This document shows, piece by piece, positions 1,487-37,641 of a stretch of 64,000 nt of DNA. This DNA comes from an uncultured Desulfobacter sp. (GTDB taxonomy: Bacteria; Desulfobacterota; Desulfobacteria; Desulfobacterales; Desulfobacteraceae). Each line of letters begins with the position of its first letter. Positions within the stretch are counted from its first letter, which is position 1. The notes below the pieces were generated by a model. That model worked only from the letters and a program-made list of their open reading frames with translations. It searched no databases and was not told where the DNA came from. The stretch covers positions 2,592,001 through 2,656,000 of the forward strand of contig OY762069.1 of NCBI GenBank assembly GCA_963665095.1, written 5' to 3'. The position numbers and the translations under genes are program-made.

Positions 1487-1560
1487 TTAGGGTGGGTAAA
1501 GAAGAACTTAAGGCAGAAGTTAAAGGTAAGAAGTTGATTATTGAAGAAGTAGAAAAATAA
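1487..1560 (+). pseudogene. 3' remnant of a small AbrB/MazE-fold gene
   Basis: LGW (1487-1495), then in a shifted frame GKEELKAEVKGKKLIIEEVEK-stop; no 5' half is visible. Confidence 0.4.
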
Positions 1561-1570
1561 TTTGGGATTA

Positions 1571-1858
1571 TTATTTAAGATACATAATAATTGGAAATAA
1601 TAAAAATAATAAGCAGATAAATAAATATAAATAAGCTACTATTTTTACTACAATTTCTCCTTCGTGATAGCCAAAAAATATATGTACTAACTTTCCTGTA
1701 AATTTATATTCAATGAATCTATACAACATAATTGAGATTATGATTCCAAGTGCAAATAGGAATGGTGATAGACTATTATACGATAATGTAAATATTATCA
1801 CATAGATTAAACATGTAAGTAATGCAAATTTTTTTTGGGATTTTGTCATATCACTCAT
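1571..1858 (-). CDS. Small multi-TM protein, probable immunity protein for the Rhs toxin
   Basis: About three hydrophobic segments; starts immediately after the Rhs stop, with a G-rich SD. Confidence 0.6.
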   Translation of the reverse strand: MSDMTKSQKKFALLTCLIYVIIFTLSYNSLSPFLFALGIIISIMLYRFIEYKFTGKLVHIFFGYHEGEIVVKIVAYLYLFICLLFLLFPIIMYLK

Positions 1859-1859
1859 T

Positions 1860-3041
1860 TTAATATCCCCCCCCATATTCATCAATCTTATTACCCTCTT
1901 TTAAATCATTTTTAGAGTAATAATAAGCTTGATAACCGGCTGTAATTGGTGATTGCACTATACCGGAATAAGGTATATACCCTAATCCATTCCAAAGTCC
2001 CAGTGCCCACTTACGTTTAAATAATGCTTCCCCCGCTTGTGCAGTGGTTATTGCATTGCCACCAATACCCACTGCACCCTTAGCATATTTATTAGTTAAG
2101 GGCTTATATAAACTTGTAGCTCCAATTGCAACATTCGTACTGATTACCCTTGCATCAGAATCGATTCTCCAAGGGTTTGCATTATCATTAGCAATAATAT
2201 CATTCAAACTCATTGTTGTGCCATCAGTAGTTTTCACATTATAGTCATATTTAGGTTCTACACCAACCCTTTTCCCTTCAGAATCAAATACAGGTTCGAA
2301 AGTTACACTTGGTGCCCCTGATAATTCACCTATTAATTCATTATCCACATATATATTATGATGTGTAGATGTGATTTTATTACCATTTTTATCAGTAGTA
2401 GTTGTTTGTTCCTTTTTATGTTCAACAAACCGACCATCAGGATCTGTATACTTATAAGGATTATTCAATTCAAATGCATACCGATTAAGATTCTGAGGGT
2501 TGTAAACATCCATCAATGGATCTGGTTGTGTAAATATCCTCTTTGAAGAATCGTAATATCGAGCACCGAAGTAATTCAGTCCAGTATCATCAAGTCCTTT
2601 TCCCTCATATCCTCTTTCAACATCCCCCACTTGCTTTCCAAACGGATAATATGATACTTCTCTAACAACATCTCCAGAGCTATTAGTAACAACGGAAGAA
2701 CTACCAAGATGATCACCATGTACAAATTCATCACCAATAGCAACAAGTTCATCTGCATAGACATAGACAACATCAAAAGAACCAGAACTATTAATCACTT
2801 TAGTATAATCTCCAAAGTAATAGACAGTTTCATATGAATTGTTCTTCATGACCCTATTACCATTATAATCGTATTTATAATTTTCTGTGAAATTTGATGA
2901 ATTTACGTGAATCAACTGATTAAATGAATCATAGGTATAGGTGTATTCTCCATCATATATCATGTTTCCATTTGCATCGTAATCAATTGCATAGCATACA
3001 GGAAGCAGTACAATCATCCAAATTAATAGCAACTTTTTCAT
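1860..3041 (-). CDS. Rhs-associated core protein with signal peptide and uncharacterised C-terminal toxin domain
   Basis: Signal peptide MKKLLLIWMIVLLPVCYA; YD repeats; DHLGSS, YYPFG, YFGARYYD and NRYAFELNNPYKYTDPDG core motifs. Confidence 0.88.
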   Translation of the reverse strand: MKKLLLIWMIVLLPVCYAIDYDANGNMIYDGEYTYTYDSFNQLIHVNSSNFTENYKYDYNGNRVMKNNSYETVYYFGDYTKVINSSGSFDVVYVYADELVAIGDEFVHGDHLGSSSVVTNSSGDVVREVSYYPFGKQVGDVERGYEGKGLDDTGLNYFGARYYDSSKRIFTQPDPLMDVYNPQNLNRYAFELNNPYKYTDPDGRFVEHKKEQTTTTDKNGNKITSTHHNIYVDNELIGELSGAPSVTFEPVFDSEGKRVGVEPKYDYNVKTTDGTTMSLNDIIANDNANPWRIDSDARVISTNVAIGATSLYKPLTNKYAKGAVGIGGNAITTAQAGEALFKRKWALGLWNGLGYIPYSGIVQSPITAGYQAYYYSKNDLKEGNKIDEYGGGY

Positions 3042-35080: not shown

Positions 35081-35186
35081 AATTCTGCCACGTAGTTATG
35101 GGATAAATTTGAGTTTTTTTTATCCCCAGCTTCAAATAAGGTTTTTATAATTCTCAAATGATATGTCTCTATAAAAATTTTTAGAG

Positions 35187-35429
35187 GTGAAAATGATGAA
35201 AAGAAAAATCAGAAATATAATGGCAATTGTCAGCATGCTGCTTCTCTGTGCAGTCTTTGTGAATGCAGCTGACACAGATGTACAGGCACAAGCACTATTC
35301 GAGCCGGACAATACATGTTCAGCTTTCGACCTATTCTCAGTTGTTGAGCCTGCTCCTGGCTGCAATTTCTATTGCCCATGGTGCCCTGGAACTCTATATA
35401 GCTGTGATTCAGCAGGCAGCTGCTGCTAA
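35187..35429 (+). CDS. Small secreted Cys-rich peptide
   Basis: GAGGTGA SD; signal peptide ending VNA; seven Cys in the predicted mature part, which ends in CC. Confidence 0.7.
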   Translation: MKMMKRKIRNIMAIVSMLLLCAVFVNAADTDVQAQALFEPDNTCSAFDLFSVVEPAPGCNFYCPWCPGTLYSCDSAGSCC

Positions 35430-35451
35430 ATTCTCATAAATTTTTATTTTT

Positions 35452-37641
35452 TTATATTTCCATGAATATCTTGTCTGCCAGGACCAAAGTCTGGTTCCTG
35501 ATTGAGGCATCATCATTATCATAATATAGCTCATCAATATAGACGCTTCCAAATAGTATCCCATCTTGTGTCTCTTGTCTGAAATTTCCTGGTAAAAGCA
35601 GCTGTTTTAGTCTTTTTTTGTATTTATGCTTATCATATCTTTTATAGAACTGAAGCGATTTGACCAAAGCCAGGCTGTCTTCCGGGATATCGTATTCATC
35701 ATTATGATATGAGACAAAAAATTTATCTTTTTGATCTGCTGAATATCTGTCATCATAGTATCTTTCAAGAATCCGGATCTTGTCCATGTAAATCTCATTT
35801 CCAGTCAGTTCATAAAGATCAAGCAGGATTTGTAGCAGCTCCTGGAAGTCTTTTGAGAATATTGAAGTCTTATCCTTGAACTCATCCAGCTCCATTATTT
35901 TATATGAGATATGCCTTCCTACCGGATCATCAAGATACGGAACTACAAGCCTTGAATGCTTATCATCAGGCATGGATACCCCATTGGGCAGGGTCATGTT
36001 CACCATGCTAAGCTCAAAGACATACCCGTCATCTTCGATATTCATGTAAGTGAACTGCTCCATATATTTTTCGGTCAGCTCAAGATATTCAGGATCACCA
36101 GTTGTCTGATAAAGCCAAAGGAAAAGACGGAAATGGTATAGATGCATTGTCTGGACCATTCCAGCGGTCTTTTCAAAATCAGACTCCATCAAATCTGAAA
36201 CTCGGGTAAGCTTTTTCAGGTAAGTCTTCTTGTGCGTCTTTTCATACGCAGGTATCAACGCATAGATGAACCGAAGGTTATCAGAACCGTCATATTTTTC
36301 TTTAAGTATCGGCTCTGTATATTTGACTGCATATTCAAGCAGTTTAGGGTATCTGTCAGACTGTTCAAACAGCATCCCTGCGAAAACGCCTGCTGCCTCT
36401 GATTCAGGACCTTTAAAGACCCAACTCCCATCGGCATTGAGATGGCTTGGATACAGTAGATCCCTGGTATGTGTGTCTCTGAATTCACCCTCAAGCAACG
36501 GATTAAGATACTTCTTCTCAAAACTTCTGTGCTGAAGATCATAAAGTGCAGATTCAAGTTCTGGCAGGCTTGGAGCTGGATTTCTCTCTATCTTATTCAA
36601 TATCGCTTCACTGCTCAGGAAATAGCGGTCATATGCACTATAGCAGCCGCCCGCTATCATGAACAAAATGACGATACTGAAAATCGTAACTATCTCCTTT
36701 TTGTGTTTGGCCACGAATGCCGCCTGCTTCTCATTCCGGTGCAACTTTTCCATGTCAGCCAGTATCTCATTTTCGCTCTTAAAAGATGAATGATTACTTG
36801 CCGCTTTTTCAATCAGGTTCTTTGCCGGCCTTGATAATACATTTTTCGCTACAAAATCATGGCGCAATTTCTGTTCAAGTATCTGTTTCCGGCTCATCCC
36901 AGAAAACGGCTTTGCCCCTGTCAGCATCTCATAATATACCAGGAAAAGCTGGTATACATCAGTCCTCCAATCAATTTTGTTGCCGTTTATCTGTACTCTT
37001 GACAGGTAATTGAGTGTGCCATTGATGCCTTGATTGGTCTTGCCCTGGAACATCGAAATCCCGAAATCGATAAGATAGGGTTTACCATTGCCCTGGATTA
37101 TAAGGTCCAGGAATTCAGCATCGATATTTTTCTTTCGTTTGATACCTTTGACTGACAGGATTATATTTGACGGTTTGATGTCGCAATGGATTACTCGGAC
37201 CTTTTTCCCATCATAACTGACATCGTTGTGCGTGTAATGGAGCGCTTTTAACAGATTGATGATGATTGAGGTTGCTATTTCATTGGGCAATCTTGCATTT
37301 CTTCCGTTCAATGCATCAATGATCTCACGAAGAGAATATCCCTCTATATGCTCCTGCCGAAATATCAATGCATCTTTTGACTCAAGCATGTCATATATCG
37401 CCGGGATATTAGGGTGATGGATAGCGCTCAGTATCTTTCCCTGCTGGATAAATGTTTTCCTCTGAATCGGTTCAACTGATTCAAGGAATTTGATATCTTC
37501 AAGCCTGCCTGCAAGCTTCCTGTTCCTGGCGACAGCAACCCCGCTGAATGGATCACTTTCAAATATATCCAATATTTCAAAATTGTTTTTTTCAAGGATA
37601 GCCTTTATCTGATTGCTTGATCTCTTCAGTGGGTTATCCAT
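35452..37641 (-). CDS. Membrane-anchored Hanks-type Ser/Thr kinase with extracytoplasmic alpha-helical domain
   Basis: HPNIP, HCDIKPSN, DFG, GTLNY, DWRTDVY, one TM segment, then LYQTTGDPEY / LYELTGNEIY repeats typical of alpha/alpha toroids. Confidence 0.85.
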   Translation of the reverse strand: MDNPLKRSSNQIKAILEKNNFEILDIFESDPFSGVAVARNRKLAGRLEDIKFLESVEPIQRKTFIQQGKILSAIHHPNIPAIYDMLESKDALIFRQEHIEGYSLREIIDALNGRNARLPNEIATSIIINLLKALHYTHNDVSYDGKKVRVIHCDIKPSNIILSVKGIKRKKNIDAEFLDLIIQGNGKPYLIDFGISMFQGKTNQGINGTLNYLSRVQINGNKIDWRTDVYQLFLVYYEMLTGAKPFSGMSRKQILEQKLRHDFVAKNVLSRPAKNLIEKAASNHSSFKSENEILADMEKLHRNEKQAAFVAKHKKEIVTIFSIVILFMIAGGCYSAYDRYFLSSEAILNKIERNPAPSLPELESALYDLQHRSFEKKYLNPLLEGEFRDTHTRDLLYPSHLNADGSWVFKGPESEAAGVFAGMLFEQSDRYPKLLEYAVKYTEPILKEKYDGSDNLRFIYALIPAYEKTHKKTYLKKLTRVSDLMESDFEKTAGMVQTMHLYHFRLFLWLYQTTGDPEYLELTEKYMEQFTYMNIEDDGYVFELSMVNMTLPNGVSMPDDKHSRLVVPYLDDPVGRHISYKIMELDEFKDKTSIFSKDFQELLQILLDLYELTGNEIYMDKIRILERYYDDRYSADQKDKFFVSYHNDEYDIPEDSLALVKSLQFYKRYDKHKYKKRLKQLLLPGNFRQETQDGILFGSVYIDELYYDNDDASIRNQTLVLADKIFMEI

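Follow-up and report, generated by a model that had tools for sequence, protein, structure and literature searches.

Woesearchaeales-type gene blocks in a tRNA-integrated element of a Desulfobacter chromosome: a probable transfer from archaea to bacteria

The window analysed here, a stretch of 64,000 nucleotides from the chromosome of an uncultured Desulfobacter sp., carries two gene blocks that an earlier note, made from the letters alone, had called archaeal-looking. This raises the question of how such genes came to reside in a sulfate-reducing bacterium. The note had suggested inter-domain transfer, and this is supported: the closest homologs of the Rhs locus, the AbrB-PhoU-type regulator, a 102-aa protein, a membrane kinase and an IS110 transposase are from Nanobdellota/Woesearchaeota, and in the homolog taxonomy check, which had been set beforehand, the top relatives were archaeal and the gene order was conserved. 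With moderate confidence, we favour a recent transfer of Woesearchaeales-type (Nanobdellota) DNA into the bacterial chromosome, where it resides within a nested mobile element. The cargo of Nanobdellota ancestry or composition amounts to ~20 kb and comprises the Rhs locus, the region at 27.9-30.4 kb and the kinase cassette.

The integrated element

An integrated element of 71,860 bp (~71.9 kb) of the serine-recombinase type lies in a tRNA-Asn gene of the host. Its att core is a 9-bp direct repeat that is present at both ends and duplicates the tRNA 3' end; the left core was found 23,864 bases upstream of window position 0 (G000:C1:2568136). The recombinase frame crosses the right core, and 156 more codons of the same frame begin at the left core. 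An empty site was found in relatives, in which the left flank gene adjoins tRNA-Asn in 4 of 9 loci, and the recombinase was matched in none of the 24 other genomes of the host genus (E<=1e-40). A host IS within the element has 12 full-length copies elsewhere in the host, 9 of them 100% identical. The flanks are host-like, as had been proposed: DsrA is present and the rnf region has 73-80% DNA identity to same-genus genomes. We take the flanking genes to be of Desulfobacterales type.

Table 1 Features of the window (positions counted from its first letter)
Feature	Position	Strand	Basis or remark
Element, in-window part	1..48004		9-bp core at both ends, relatives' loci, host IS
IS110 transposase, Nanobdellota type	114..1235	+	47-49% to IS110 beside Rhs loci in L053, L054
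151-bp repeat, 49% GC	1307..1457	+	90.7% identical copy 1 kb upstream of window, right after radC
Small membrane protein, putative immunity gene	1571..1885	-	three hydrophobic segments; equivalent position in Nanobdellota loci
Rhs core + variable tip (TcC-like), 393 aa, separately secreted	1860..3041	-	TIGR03696, signal-like N-terminus
Secreted SpvB/FG-GAP/TcdB-midN/YD-repeat shell protein (TcB-like), 1625 aa	3038..7915	-	domain matches, homology, tree
Secreted LamG protein, C-terminal domain conserved in Nanobdellota Rhs loci	7925..9313	-	matches 8/15 loci, up to 48%
Secreted 183-aa protein, operon's first gene	9310..9861	-	matches 6/15 loci; TATA-like box 9907-9920
Bacterial defence island between blocks: Gabija, type III RM, DUF4391, SNF2 helicase, IS66-type element	10170..27515		PADLOC, Pfam
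NYN nuclease + 505-aa membrane-anchored protein	27912..30420		26% GC, Nanobdellota-like codon use
RadC + two unknown mobile-backbone-type genes	31322..32771		codon use like upstream module; L103
Paralog of 102-aa Nanobdellota family	32851..33267	+	28% over 87 aa; match in L052
102-aa protein, Nanobdellota-dominated family, leaderless	33803..34111	-	59% to Woesearchaeota MAG
AbrB-PhoU-type regulator, leaderless	34178..35080	+	archaeal in 5/5 confirmed GTDB loci
Secreted 78-aa peptide, six-cysteine C-terminus	35193..35429	+	equivalent place in L003
Membrane Ser/Thr kinase	35452..37641	-	N-terminal kinase, one TM segment (315-333), outer domain
Bacterial-style backbone: ThiF, HerA/TrwB-like ATPase, unknown genes	38833..46081		family matches, AGGAG-type SDs, no TATA hits
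Large serine recombinase	46397..48037	+	Pfam Resolvase/Recombinase/Zn-ribbon
tRNA-Asn(GTT), integration target	47996..48071	-	right att core 47996-48004

Elements and defence islands inserted into tRNA genes by large serine recombinases carry the recombinase at the tRNA end, a short att core, an att site inside the recombinase gene and defence cargo. The present element is alike in recombinase place, att layout and cargo (Gabija, type III RM, a Piwi-domain gene and GmrSD) but differs in carrying intact operons of DPANN type and an integrase module of archaeal style; probably, an integrative element of archaeal type lies nested within the bacterial serine-recombinase element. The SNF2 helicase of the defence island is 73-76% identical to proteins of proteobacterial plasmids, and the best named match of the HerA in the right backbone is from the Olavius Delta 1 symbiont (52%). 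Pfam scans covering 55 ORFs of the window and 18 upstream of it gave no relaxase or mating-pair genes, although short or divergent ones may escape such scans, and an integrative conjugative element was rejected on these grounds; the sole related hits were the HerA/TrwB-like ATPases, whose matches to VirB4 and CedD were weak and well below the cut-off. Aloposons, tRNA-integrated elements that mix genes of both domains (Wu et al. 2022, PMC8813620), sit in archaea and, by that account, need tandem genes of 3,000-6,000 aa; since no such genes were found and the largest here is 1625 aa, this class was rejected as well. Rfam matches in the window were confined to the tRNA.

Gene content of the two blocks

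Both blocks are archaeal-like, as noted before, but their extents had to be revised: the archaeal-style segment begins ~11 kb upstream of the window, extending block 1, and block 2 (27.9-37.6 kb) is a mosaic that includes the backbone-type genes at 31322-32771.

Judged from its genes, block 1 is a split (two-part) Rhs polymorphic toxin locus with Nanobdellota gene order. Among 301 Nanobdellota-draw genomes the 1625-aa protein reached 1126 bits (42%, near full length), compared with a bacterial best of 378 bits in 300 host-phylum genomes and 241 bits in plasmids; the bacterial controls were the host phylum and plasmids, and protein sets without taxon were searched besides. In the tree it grouped with 15 Nanobdellota rows (SH-aLRT 99) and fell inside them at 92. 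Nesting is not statistically forced, a placement outside the archaeal set not being rejected by the AU test (p=0.268). The 393-aa protein was matched in 14 of 15 Nanobdellota loci; the four-gene order is intact in 4 of the 7 Rhs loci with ORFs listed, one of which adjoins SRP54. The locus has a conserved core with a DPxG-type motif, a variable tip without family match in Pfam and further profile searches, an adjacent immunity-like gene and orphan tips. Compared with TcB-TcC/Rhs systems (PMC7861908; see also PMC3482391), it resembles them in the SpvB, FG-GAP, midN and YD-repeat shell followed by an Rhs core with variable tip, and in the adjacent small membrane gene and orphan tip. It differs from them in that each part has its own signal-like N-terminus, most repeats lie in the shell protein, the LamG and 183-aa genes precede the shell and the family is Nanobdellota-centred. 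A TcA-type partner was not found among the locus ORFs, and the VRP1 family was unmatched in the host genome, where controls also gave no match. In the donor, the locus would most likely encode a Sec-exported two-part Rhs polymorphic toxin, with toxicity and neutralisation as predicted activities: the shell protein would cage the separately made core-plus-tip protein, the membrane protein would confer immunity and the orphan tip would serve as a spare.

The upstream 10-kb module encodes a tyrosine integrase, a HerA/CedD-like ATPase, a PRTRC-like ParB, ArdC and RadC. Its integrase was matched in 36 of 251 Nanobdellota genomes and in none of 300 host-class and 400 host-order genomes, and the integrase-HerA pair recurs on archaeal contigs bearing eIF-6 or Cdc6. 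Among named integrases, the nearest comes from a bacterium, Desulfosarcina cetonica (75%), and archaeal and bacterial labels are interleaved in the integrase tree. In archaeal integrative elements (L079, L080, L100, L146), the integrase, HerA and small genes linked to them are 30-48% identical to those here; the present module differs by its bacterial residence and the added ParB, ArdC and RadC. The IS110 adjoins an orphan Rhs tip just upstream of the window, has no second copy in the host and reaches 31% in its best plasmid match. The 151-bp repeat is a candidate element end or capture site.

At the left of block 2, the NYN nuclease had matches at E<=1e-8 in 5 of 151 genomes (the best with 95 bits) in a comparison confined to Nanobdellota, and the 505-aa protein had no family match in Pfam and further profile searches. 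The part at 31974-32408 matches metagenome contig L103, which carries a related integrase too. Further right, the 102-aa protein, the regulator, the cysteine-rich peptide, which the earlier note had not listed, and the kinase form a four-gene cassette that is syntenic with a Woesearchaeota MAG at 36-59% identity and with similar spacers; in one Nanobdellota genome (L052) the Rhs locus and the AbrB-PhoU pair lie within ~7 kb. Atlas clusters of the 102-aa protein are 87-100% archaeal (score 0.92-0.94). The regulator had been described as AbrB-PhoU; its N-terminal AbrB/MazE domain (PF04014, E=1.5e-8) and archaeal relatives were confirmed, but PhoU had no Pfam match in the window protein, one homolog reaching PF01895 under the cut-off. 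It was found in none of the 24 other host-genus genomes, and all 15 of its plasmid matches (22-28%) are from haloarchaeal genera, 8 listed ones being annotated 'phosphate uptake regulator PhoU'. For the kinase, 33 relatives score at least 344 bits, after which scores drop to 84 bits; the nearest is 75% identical and the three named ones are Nanobdellota. It was found in 1 of 201 Nanobdellota-draw genomes, which is the centre genome itself, and its outer domain gave weak glycoside-hydrolase-type helical matches. A class III/IV lanthipeptide synthetase was rejected because the kinase domain comes first, the membrane segment lies at 315-333 and LanL scored 29.7 bits against a cut-off of 650. In the donor, 33.8-37.6 kb would most likely act as a peptide-sensing module of secreted Cys peptide, receptor kinase and AbrB-PhoU regulator.

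Archaeal-style signals and composition

The GGTG-type SD sites reported before lie where they had been placed (AGGTGA 7 nt before the start at 3041, AGGTGG 5 nt before that at 7915 and GGAGGTG 5 nt before that at 9313), except that GAGGTGA begins at 35184, not 35187, its ATG being at 35193. As an archaeal trait they hold for block 1, in which GGT-type to AGGA/GGAG-only sites are 4:2 compared with 318:1982 in the host (p=0.004) and 39:21 in Nanobdellota loci, but not for block 2 (1:2, not significant); the ratio is 5:4 in the upstream module. Since the anti-SD of the host 16S rRNA pairs with GGTG too, the excess is a frequency skew and not diagnostic.

TATA-like motifs are present at all three places named before: at 9907-9920, in front of 28903 and, arranged back to back, within 34112-34177, where they precede the leaderless 102-aa and AbrB-PhoU genes. 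Counted with one strict pattern in intergenic DNA against 100 shuffles, block 2 had 20 hits compared with 5.6+/-2.9 (no shuffle as high), block 1 was not enriched (1 hit, 2.5 shuffled) and the defence island had 6 compared with 2.1 (4 of 100 shuffles), at a host baseline of 1.26-1.52x. The hand count of about 39 sequons in the 1625-aa protein was exact: 39, compared with 22.8+/-4.1 in shuffled sequences, none of 1000 being as high. The protein at 7925-9313 has 15 (7.5 shuffled), and the ratio is at least 1.48x in 12 of 15 archaeal orthologs and 0.82-1.28x in 7 of 7 bacterial homologs. Searches of the host genome gave no TBP, TFB or STT3, while archaeal controls were matched. The proposed tetranucleotide profile agreed for the blocks, which are covered by the three most Nanobdellota-shifted of 690 10-kb intervals, but not for the upstream module, which is nearer the host (r 0.49 vs 0.11). 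Codon use is Nanobdellota-like in block 1 and not, by the score used, in the kinase cassette; therefore, the blocks may differ in age or donor.

Origin of the cargo

Archaeal expression signals that the bacterium would be unable to read are still present, which points to a recent transfer from archaea to bacteria. In the history that we propose, the upstream module would be an integrative element that once lived in an archaeon, where it acquired archaeal loci next to it. It would then have entered the sulfate reducer, most simply via close cell contact, and recombined into a resident serine-recombinase element, and the defence island at 9.95-27.7 kb may have arrived later. The bacterium would be unable to read the promoters and glycosylation sites of the cargo, which would therefore be a mostly silent passenger, and the element would be kept through its anti-phage genes. 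Among named genomes, donor proximity does not exceed 59%.

According to Castelle et al. (2021, PMC8204110), Woesearchaeota take part in inter-domain gene flow and some may be bacterial episymbionts, their hosts being an open question for which bacteria have been proposed; of the DPANN families without a known function, few were seen in bacteria. Documented DPANN gene flow runs mostly from bacteria to DPANN; here the direction would be the opposite, and whole syntenic operons with unerased archaeal promoters and glycosylation signals stand in a complete bacterial chromosome beside a candidate vehicle. Archaeal integrons, as portrayed by Ghaly et al. (2022, PMC9668308), allow bacteria to recruit archaeal genes, and attC sites are reported to be common to Nanoarchaeota and bacteria including Desulfobacterota. 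In contrast to their single-gene cassettes, the blocks here are native multi-gene operons of up to 10 kb with their own promoters, and a cassette array was not seen. The locus points to a type of host, which is a lead towards the cells that Woesearchaeota-type archaea inhabit, and it provides markers with which the same community could be examined by FISH, proximity ligation and single-cell methods. As read from the genes, it also appears to expose two new DPANN systems, the two-part secreted Rhs toxin locus and the peptide/receptor-kinase cassette; no description of either was found in the literature searched.

A more far-reaching version, which we hold only tentatively, is that a family of integrative elements passes straight from Woesearchaeales to sulfate reducers of Desulfobacterales type and back, since the archaea would be living attached to the bacterial cells; the window might then be a fresh footprint of this partnership and the Desulfosarcina cetonica integrase a second. 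It is rather unlikely that an old bacterial element captured environmental archaeal DNA piecemeal, in at least two events and with neither an archaeal vehicle nor cell contact. The D. cetonica integrase, the host-like composition of the upstream module, the differing codon use and the 151-bp repeat flanking one cassette, as in sequential captures, would fit, but the module has GAGGT-type SDs and TATA-like boxes where the right backbone has AGGAG and no boxes, integrase-HerA modules occur on archaeal contigs, and the integrase is missing from the class and order draws. Still less probable is a last donor from an unsampled bacterial lineage (e.g. CPR) that shares families with DPANN and acted as source or route: top matches are mostly without taxon, the AU test does not reject a placement outside the archaeal set and, as no more than a lead, the LamG C-terminal part has a Minisyncoccota cluster in its first Atlas row (0.78), yet the sequon excess, the leaderless genes with TATA-like boxes and the unameliorated codon use of block 1 are all fresh, and the regulator is archaeal in all 5 confirmed GTDB loci and all 15 plasmid records.

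A misassembly that joined archaeal to bacterial contigs of a mixed community, which the earlier note had linked to junctions without spanning reads, is very improbable, although the runs are metagenome-like with many tRNA-Asn variants, X1-X3 are one sample, the genome contamination estimate is 4.92%, no single listed piece spans all of 2433-48024 and the read depth of the element is 0.47-0.72 of the host flank, with no excised-circle or restored-site joint among the rows listed: an independently built de Bruijn contig does, the att pair, split recombinase frame and empty site agree with true integration, and archaeal TBP and TFB are absent elsewhere in the genome. This contig (45,592 nt, found in 3 runs of one study, probably from the source sample of the assembly) covers 2433-48024 unbroken, which makes a misjoin unlikely; it crosses the junctions at 9.95, 27.8 and 37.7 kb, ends 29 nt into the bacterial tRNA, shows no differences at 29501-48024 and is bounded only by a 32-bp repeat and the shared tRNA. 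A second sample has 78% of the sequence words from 30-40 kb.

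Site of integration and physical linkage of the element

The site of integration could be demonstrated in the host genome G000, a single 6.9-Mb contig (48.7% GC, 97.4% complete, 4.9% contaminated) that contains DsrA; positions 2592001-2656000 of G000:C1 form the window. Judged by gene content, the host is probably a member of the Desulfobacterales. The GC content of the window is 25-44% until 48 kb and ~50% past tRNA-Asn, whose 3' end is the 9-bp att core. A second copy of the core, immediately preceded by a terminator-like hairpin, was found 71,860 bp leftward, at a distance of 23,864 bases from the upstream edge of the window. 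The empty site was seen in four of nine same-genus loci, where, in the short flanks examined, the DNA left of the left core adjoins tRNA-Asn. The reading frame of the serine recombinase runs through the right att core and continues from the left one over 156 codons without a stop, which fits a gene split on integration; the recombinase was not found in 24 other genomes of the genus. The left end contains a 3.5-kb host insertion sequence with 12 full-length copies elsewhere in the genome, nine of them identical.

Coordinates of features of the element and of related loci (L001, DNA upstream of the window; L003, Woesearchaeota contig; L079 and L080, Woesearchaeota-type contigs; G000, host genome)
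Feature	Window	Other sequence
Piwi-domain gene (prokaryotic Argonaute-like)		L001:2299-4296
151-bp direct repeat	1307-1457	L001:18996-19146
Two-part Rhs locus	1860-9861	
Bacterial defence island	10170-27515	
DruA-like domain gene	25786-26703	
Stretch of high codon score	27912-30420	
Imperfect 48-nt inverted repeat	28781-28907	
Backbone-like stretch	31322-32771	
Kinase cassette	33803-37641	L003:9614-13380
ThiF/E1 gene	40284-42658	
Serine recombinase	46397-48037	
tRNA-Asn	47996-48071	
tRNA-Pyl		G000:C1:900717-900790
Host CRISPR spacer matching tRNA genes		G000:C1:3471026-3471058
Integrase and serine recombinase		L079:9375-12822; L080:9375-12825

The earlier note had considered an assembly chimera, and over the stretch covered by one contig (2433-48024) the element is unlikely to be a misjoin. 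30-40 kb of the window are present in four sequencing runs, all of one study; no RNA run was among those listed. A single 45,592-nt contig from three of these runs (one sample, probably the source sample) equals 29501-48024 with zero differences; the base comparison covered 29501-49500, and 2433-29500 is inferred from the length of the contig. By this length the contig starts at 2433, at a 32-bp repeat that would break the k-mer graph. It ends 29 nt inside the tRNA, 20 nt beyond the att core, and joins a host contig via a short shared piece. The depth of the element relative to the host flank was 0.62, 0.72 and 0.47 in the three runs. Cover in the fourth run, whose library type is not given, was uneven and fragmented, and the demonstrated linkage rests on the other three.

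In the left end of the element, the Piwi-domain gene lies directly after the host insertion sequence, 17.7-15.7 kb upstream of the window, with a GmrSD nuclease nearby. None of the 204 host CRISPR spacers matched the element. The best match of a host spacer to any examined locus was an uninformative 21 nt in tRNA genes: the spacer shares these with tRNA-Thr genes in two loci (L118 and L120) and 18 nt with the host's own tRNA-Gly, and is probably an att-site fragment. ARAGORN also called a tRNA-Pyl in the host genome.

Ancestry of the Rhs locus and the kinase cassette

The cargo is, with high probability, real and of Nanobdellota ancestry. The Rhs locus encodes, in order, a 183-aa secreted protein, a LamG protein, a 1625-aa protein with SpvB/FG-GAP/TcdB-midN/YD domains (Tc subunits are defined in PMC7861908), a 393-aa Rhs core with tip, a small membrane protein and IS110; after IS110, just upstream of the window, an orphan tip and a second membrane gene follow. 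The 1625-aa protein had matches in 39 of 301 Nanobdellota genomes, sampled from the phylum to which G031 (genome of record Candidatus Woesearchaeota archaeon) belongs; 12 of these matches were near full length with 711-1126 bits. Matches in 83 of 300 other genomes of the host phylum were partial (best 378 bits), and the best 10 of 756 plasmid matches reached at most 241 bits. Among 15 archaeal loci searched, the tip gene was found in 14, the LamG gene in eight, the 183-aa gene in six and IS110 in two. The four-gene order was intact in four of the seven Rhs loci with ORFs listed; one adjoins SRP54. In quick trees of 23 rows the 1625-aa protein grouped with all 15 archaeal rows (SH-aLRT 99) and was placed inside them at 92; a placement just outside was not rejected by the AU test (p = 0.268). 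IS110 shares 47-49% identity with copies next to Rhs loci of archaea and 31% with the best-matching plasmid copy.

Two-part Rhs loci of this kind are also present in chromosomes of Nanobdellota (L049, L051, L057, L058), with orphan-tip arrays in L051 and L057, and shell and tip proteins each have a signal-like N-terminus. Targeting of the Rhs junction by IS110 was rejected, since the flanks in two further loci, L053 and L054, are unlike the arrangement in the window. The 151-bp repeat, which is GC-richer, brackets the orphan tip, membrane gene and IS110; Rfam had no match to it, and the other loci examined lack a copy.

Every gene of the kinase cassette has its syntenic counterpart in the Woesearchaeota contig L003. 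Identities were 59% for the 102-aa protein, 39% for the AbrB-PhoU regulator, 36% for the secreted Cys peptide and 41-43% for the kinase, with spacers of 66/112/22 nt in the window and 75/71/36 nt in L003. All five AbrB-PhoU loci confirmed in GTDB from 63 pattern matches were archaeal, and all 15 plasmid records were haloarchaeal; the regulator was absent from 24 genus relatives of the host. Scoring of 8000 candidates gave 33 relatives of the kinase with at least 344 bits, the next match having 84 bits. Three of the 33 carried a taxon, in each case Nanobdellota, although the kinase is rare there too (1 of 201 genomes). Three short homologs of the peptide, among six matches, have six cysteines in common. 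The cassette is possibly a peptide/receptor-kinase signalling module of Woesearchaeales. In both the window and L003 the gene of the six-cysteine secreted peptide faces that of the single-pass Ser/Thr kinase, beside the AbrB-PhoU regulator. A function of the kinase as lanthipeptide synthetase was rejected.

The NYN protein of the second block had matches in five of 151 genomes, in a search of archaeal genomes only. The inverted repeat lies in the divergent promoter region of the NYN gene and a 505-aa gene. In the Nanobdellota locus L052, an Rhs locus and the AbrB-PhoU/102-aa pair are ~7 kb apart, and on this ground the two blocks may once have been neighbours.

Expression signals and composition

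The cargo carries signals that the host cannot read: searches of the host genome gave no TBP, TFB or STT3, with four archaeal controls positive each time. The roughly 39 sequons counted in the 1625-aa protein in the earlier note were confirmed (39, against 22.8 in shuffled sequence); of 15 archaeal orthologs 12 have this excess as well, and seven bacterial homologs lack it. GGTG-type Shine-Dalgarno sites had been taken as archaeal and had to be given up as proof, since the host anti-SD pairs with GGTG. TATA-like boxes are block-specific only in part, because block 1 was not above the shuffle and the defence island also was. The evidence from both signals together is mixed. Among 690 10-kb windows, the three with the strongest shift toward the archaeal loci are those over the blocks. 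A codon score, which was trained on low-GC genes and is in-sample and confounded with GC3, exceeded the host 99th percentile in most of block 1, in 27912-30420 and in the gene at 33312, and did not in the kinase cassette.

Candidate vehicle and proposed route

A viral origin was rejected since the integrase, ParB, upstream HerA, recombinase and kinase have no close relatives in IMG/VR. An archaeal origin of the whole element was likewise rejected because the defence island and the right backbone are bacterial. The island comprises Gabija, type III RM and an IS66-type element; SNF2 is 73-76% identical to proteobacterial plasmid proteins, and GajA had a match at 51%. The IS66-type element, which contains the DruA-like domain gene, occurs as a full copy only once in the host genome. 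In the backbone, the ThiF/E1 gene, with a putative N-terminal JAB-like stretch, is flanked by a 146-aa gene on one side and a Cys-rich gene on the other; by sequence the region resembles a bacterial ubiquitin-like cluster.

The upstream module, located between 11.3 and 1 kb before the window, encodes a HerA-like ATPase, a tyrosine integrase, ParB, ArdC and RadC and ends in the 151-bp repeat found again at 1307. Of 251 Nanobdellota genomes, 36 contained a match to the integrase (best 43%), and none was found in 300 class and 400 order relatives of the host; a 75% identical integrase is present in Desulfosarcina cetonica, a locus outside both draws. The unpublished genome G278 is counted among these 36, supplies one tree row and is part of the pooled reference sets; no claim is made on it alone. 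Integrase and HerA occur together again in metagenome contigs bearing eIF-6 and FtsY, or Cdc6. Labels of archaea and bacteria are intermixed in the integrase tree, in which most of the 84 rows are without a label. The ratio of GGT-type to AGGA/GGAG Shine-Dalgarno sites was 5:4 in the module and 0:7 in the right backbone; TATA-like boxes numbered seven in the module (2.9 expected) and none in the backbone. Tetranucleotides and codons of the module are, as counter-evidence, host-like.

An archaeal-type element would have gathered archaeal cargo, crossed into a sulfate reducer and merged there with a resident element; the defence island would later have split the cargo of the merged element, which may now be largely silent in the bacterium. 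We lean towards this route as a whole. The transfer of whole operons from DPANN archaea to a bacterium, apparently recent, is well supported and is a variant of an already known process. DPANN archaea contain bacterial genes and bacterial hosts have been suggested for some Woesearchaeota (PMC8204110), integrons recruit archaeal cassettes (PMC9668308) and aloposons are defined in PMC8813620. A literature search, mainly of the main texts of open-access papers, yielded no description of such a locus; supplements might list such contigs.

In L079 and L080 a serine recombinase comes immediately after a tyrosine integrase; the pair marks an element end, which lies beside eIF-6 or other chromosomal genes.
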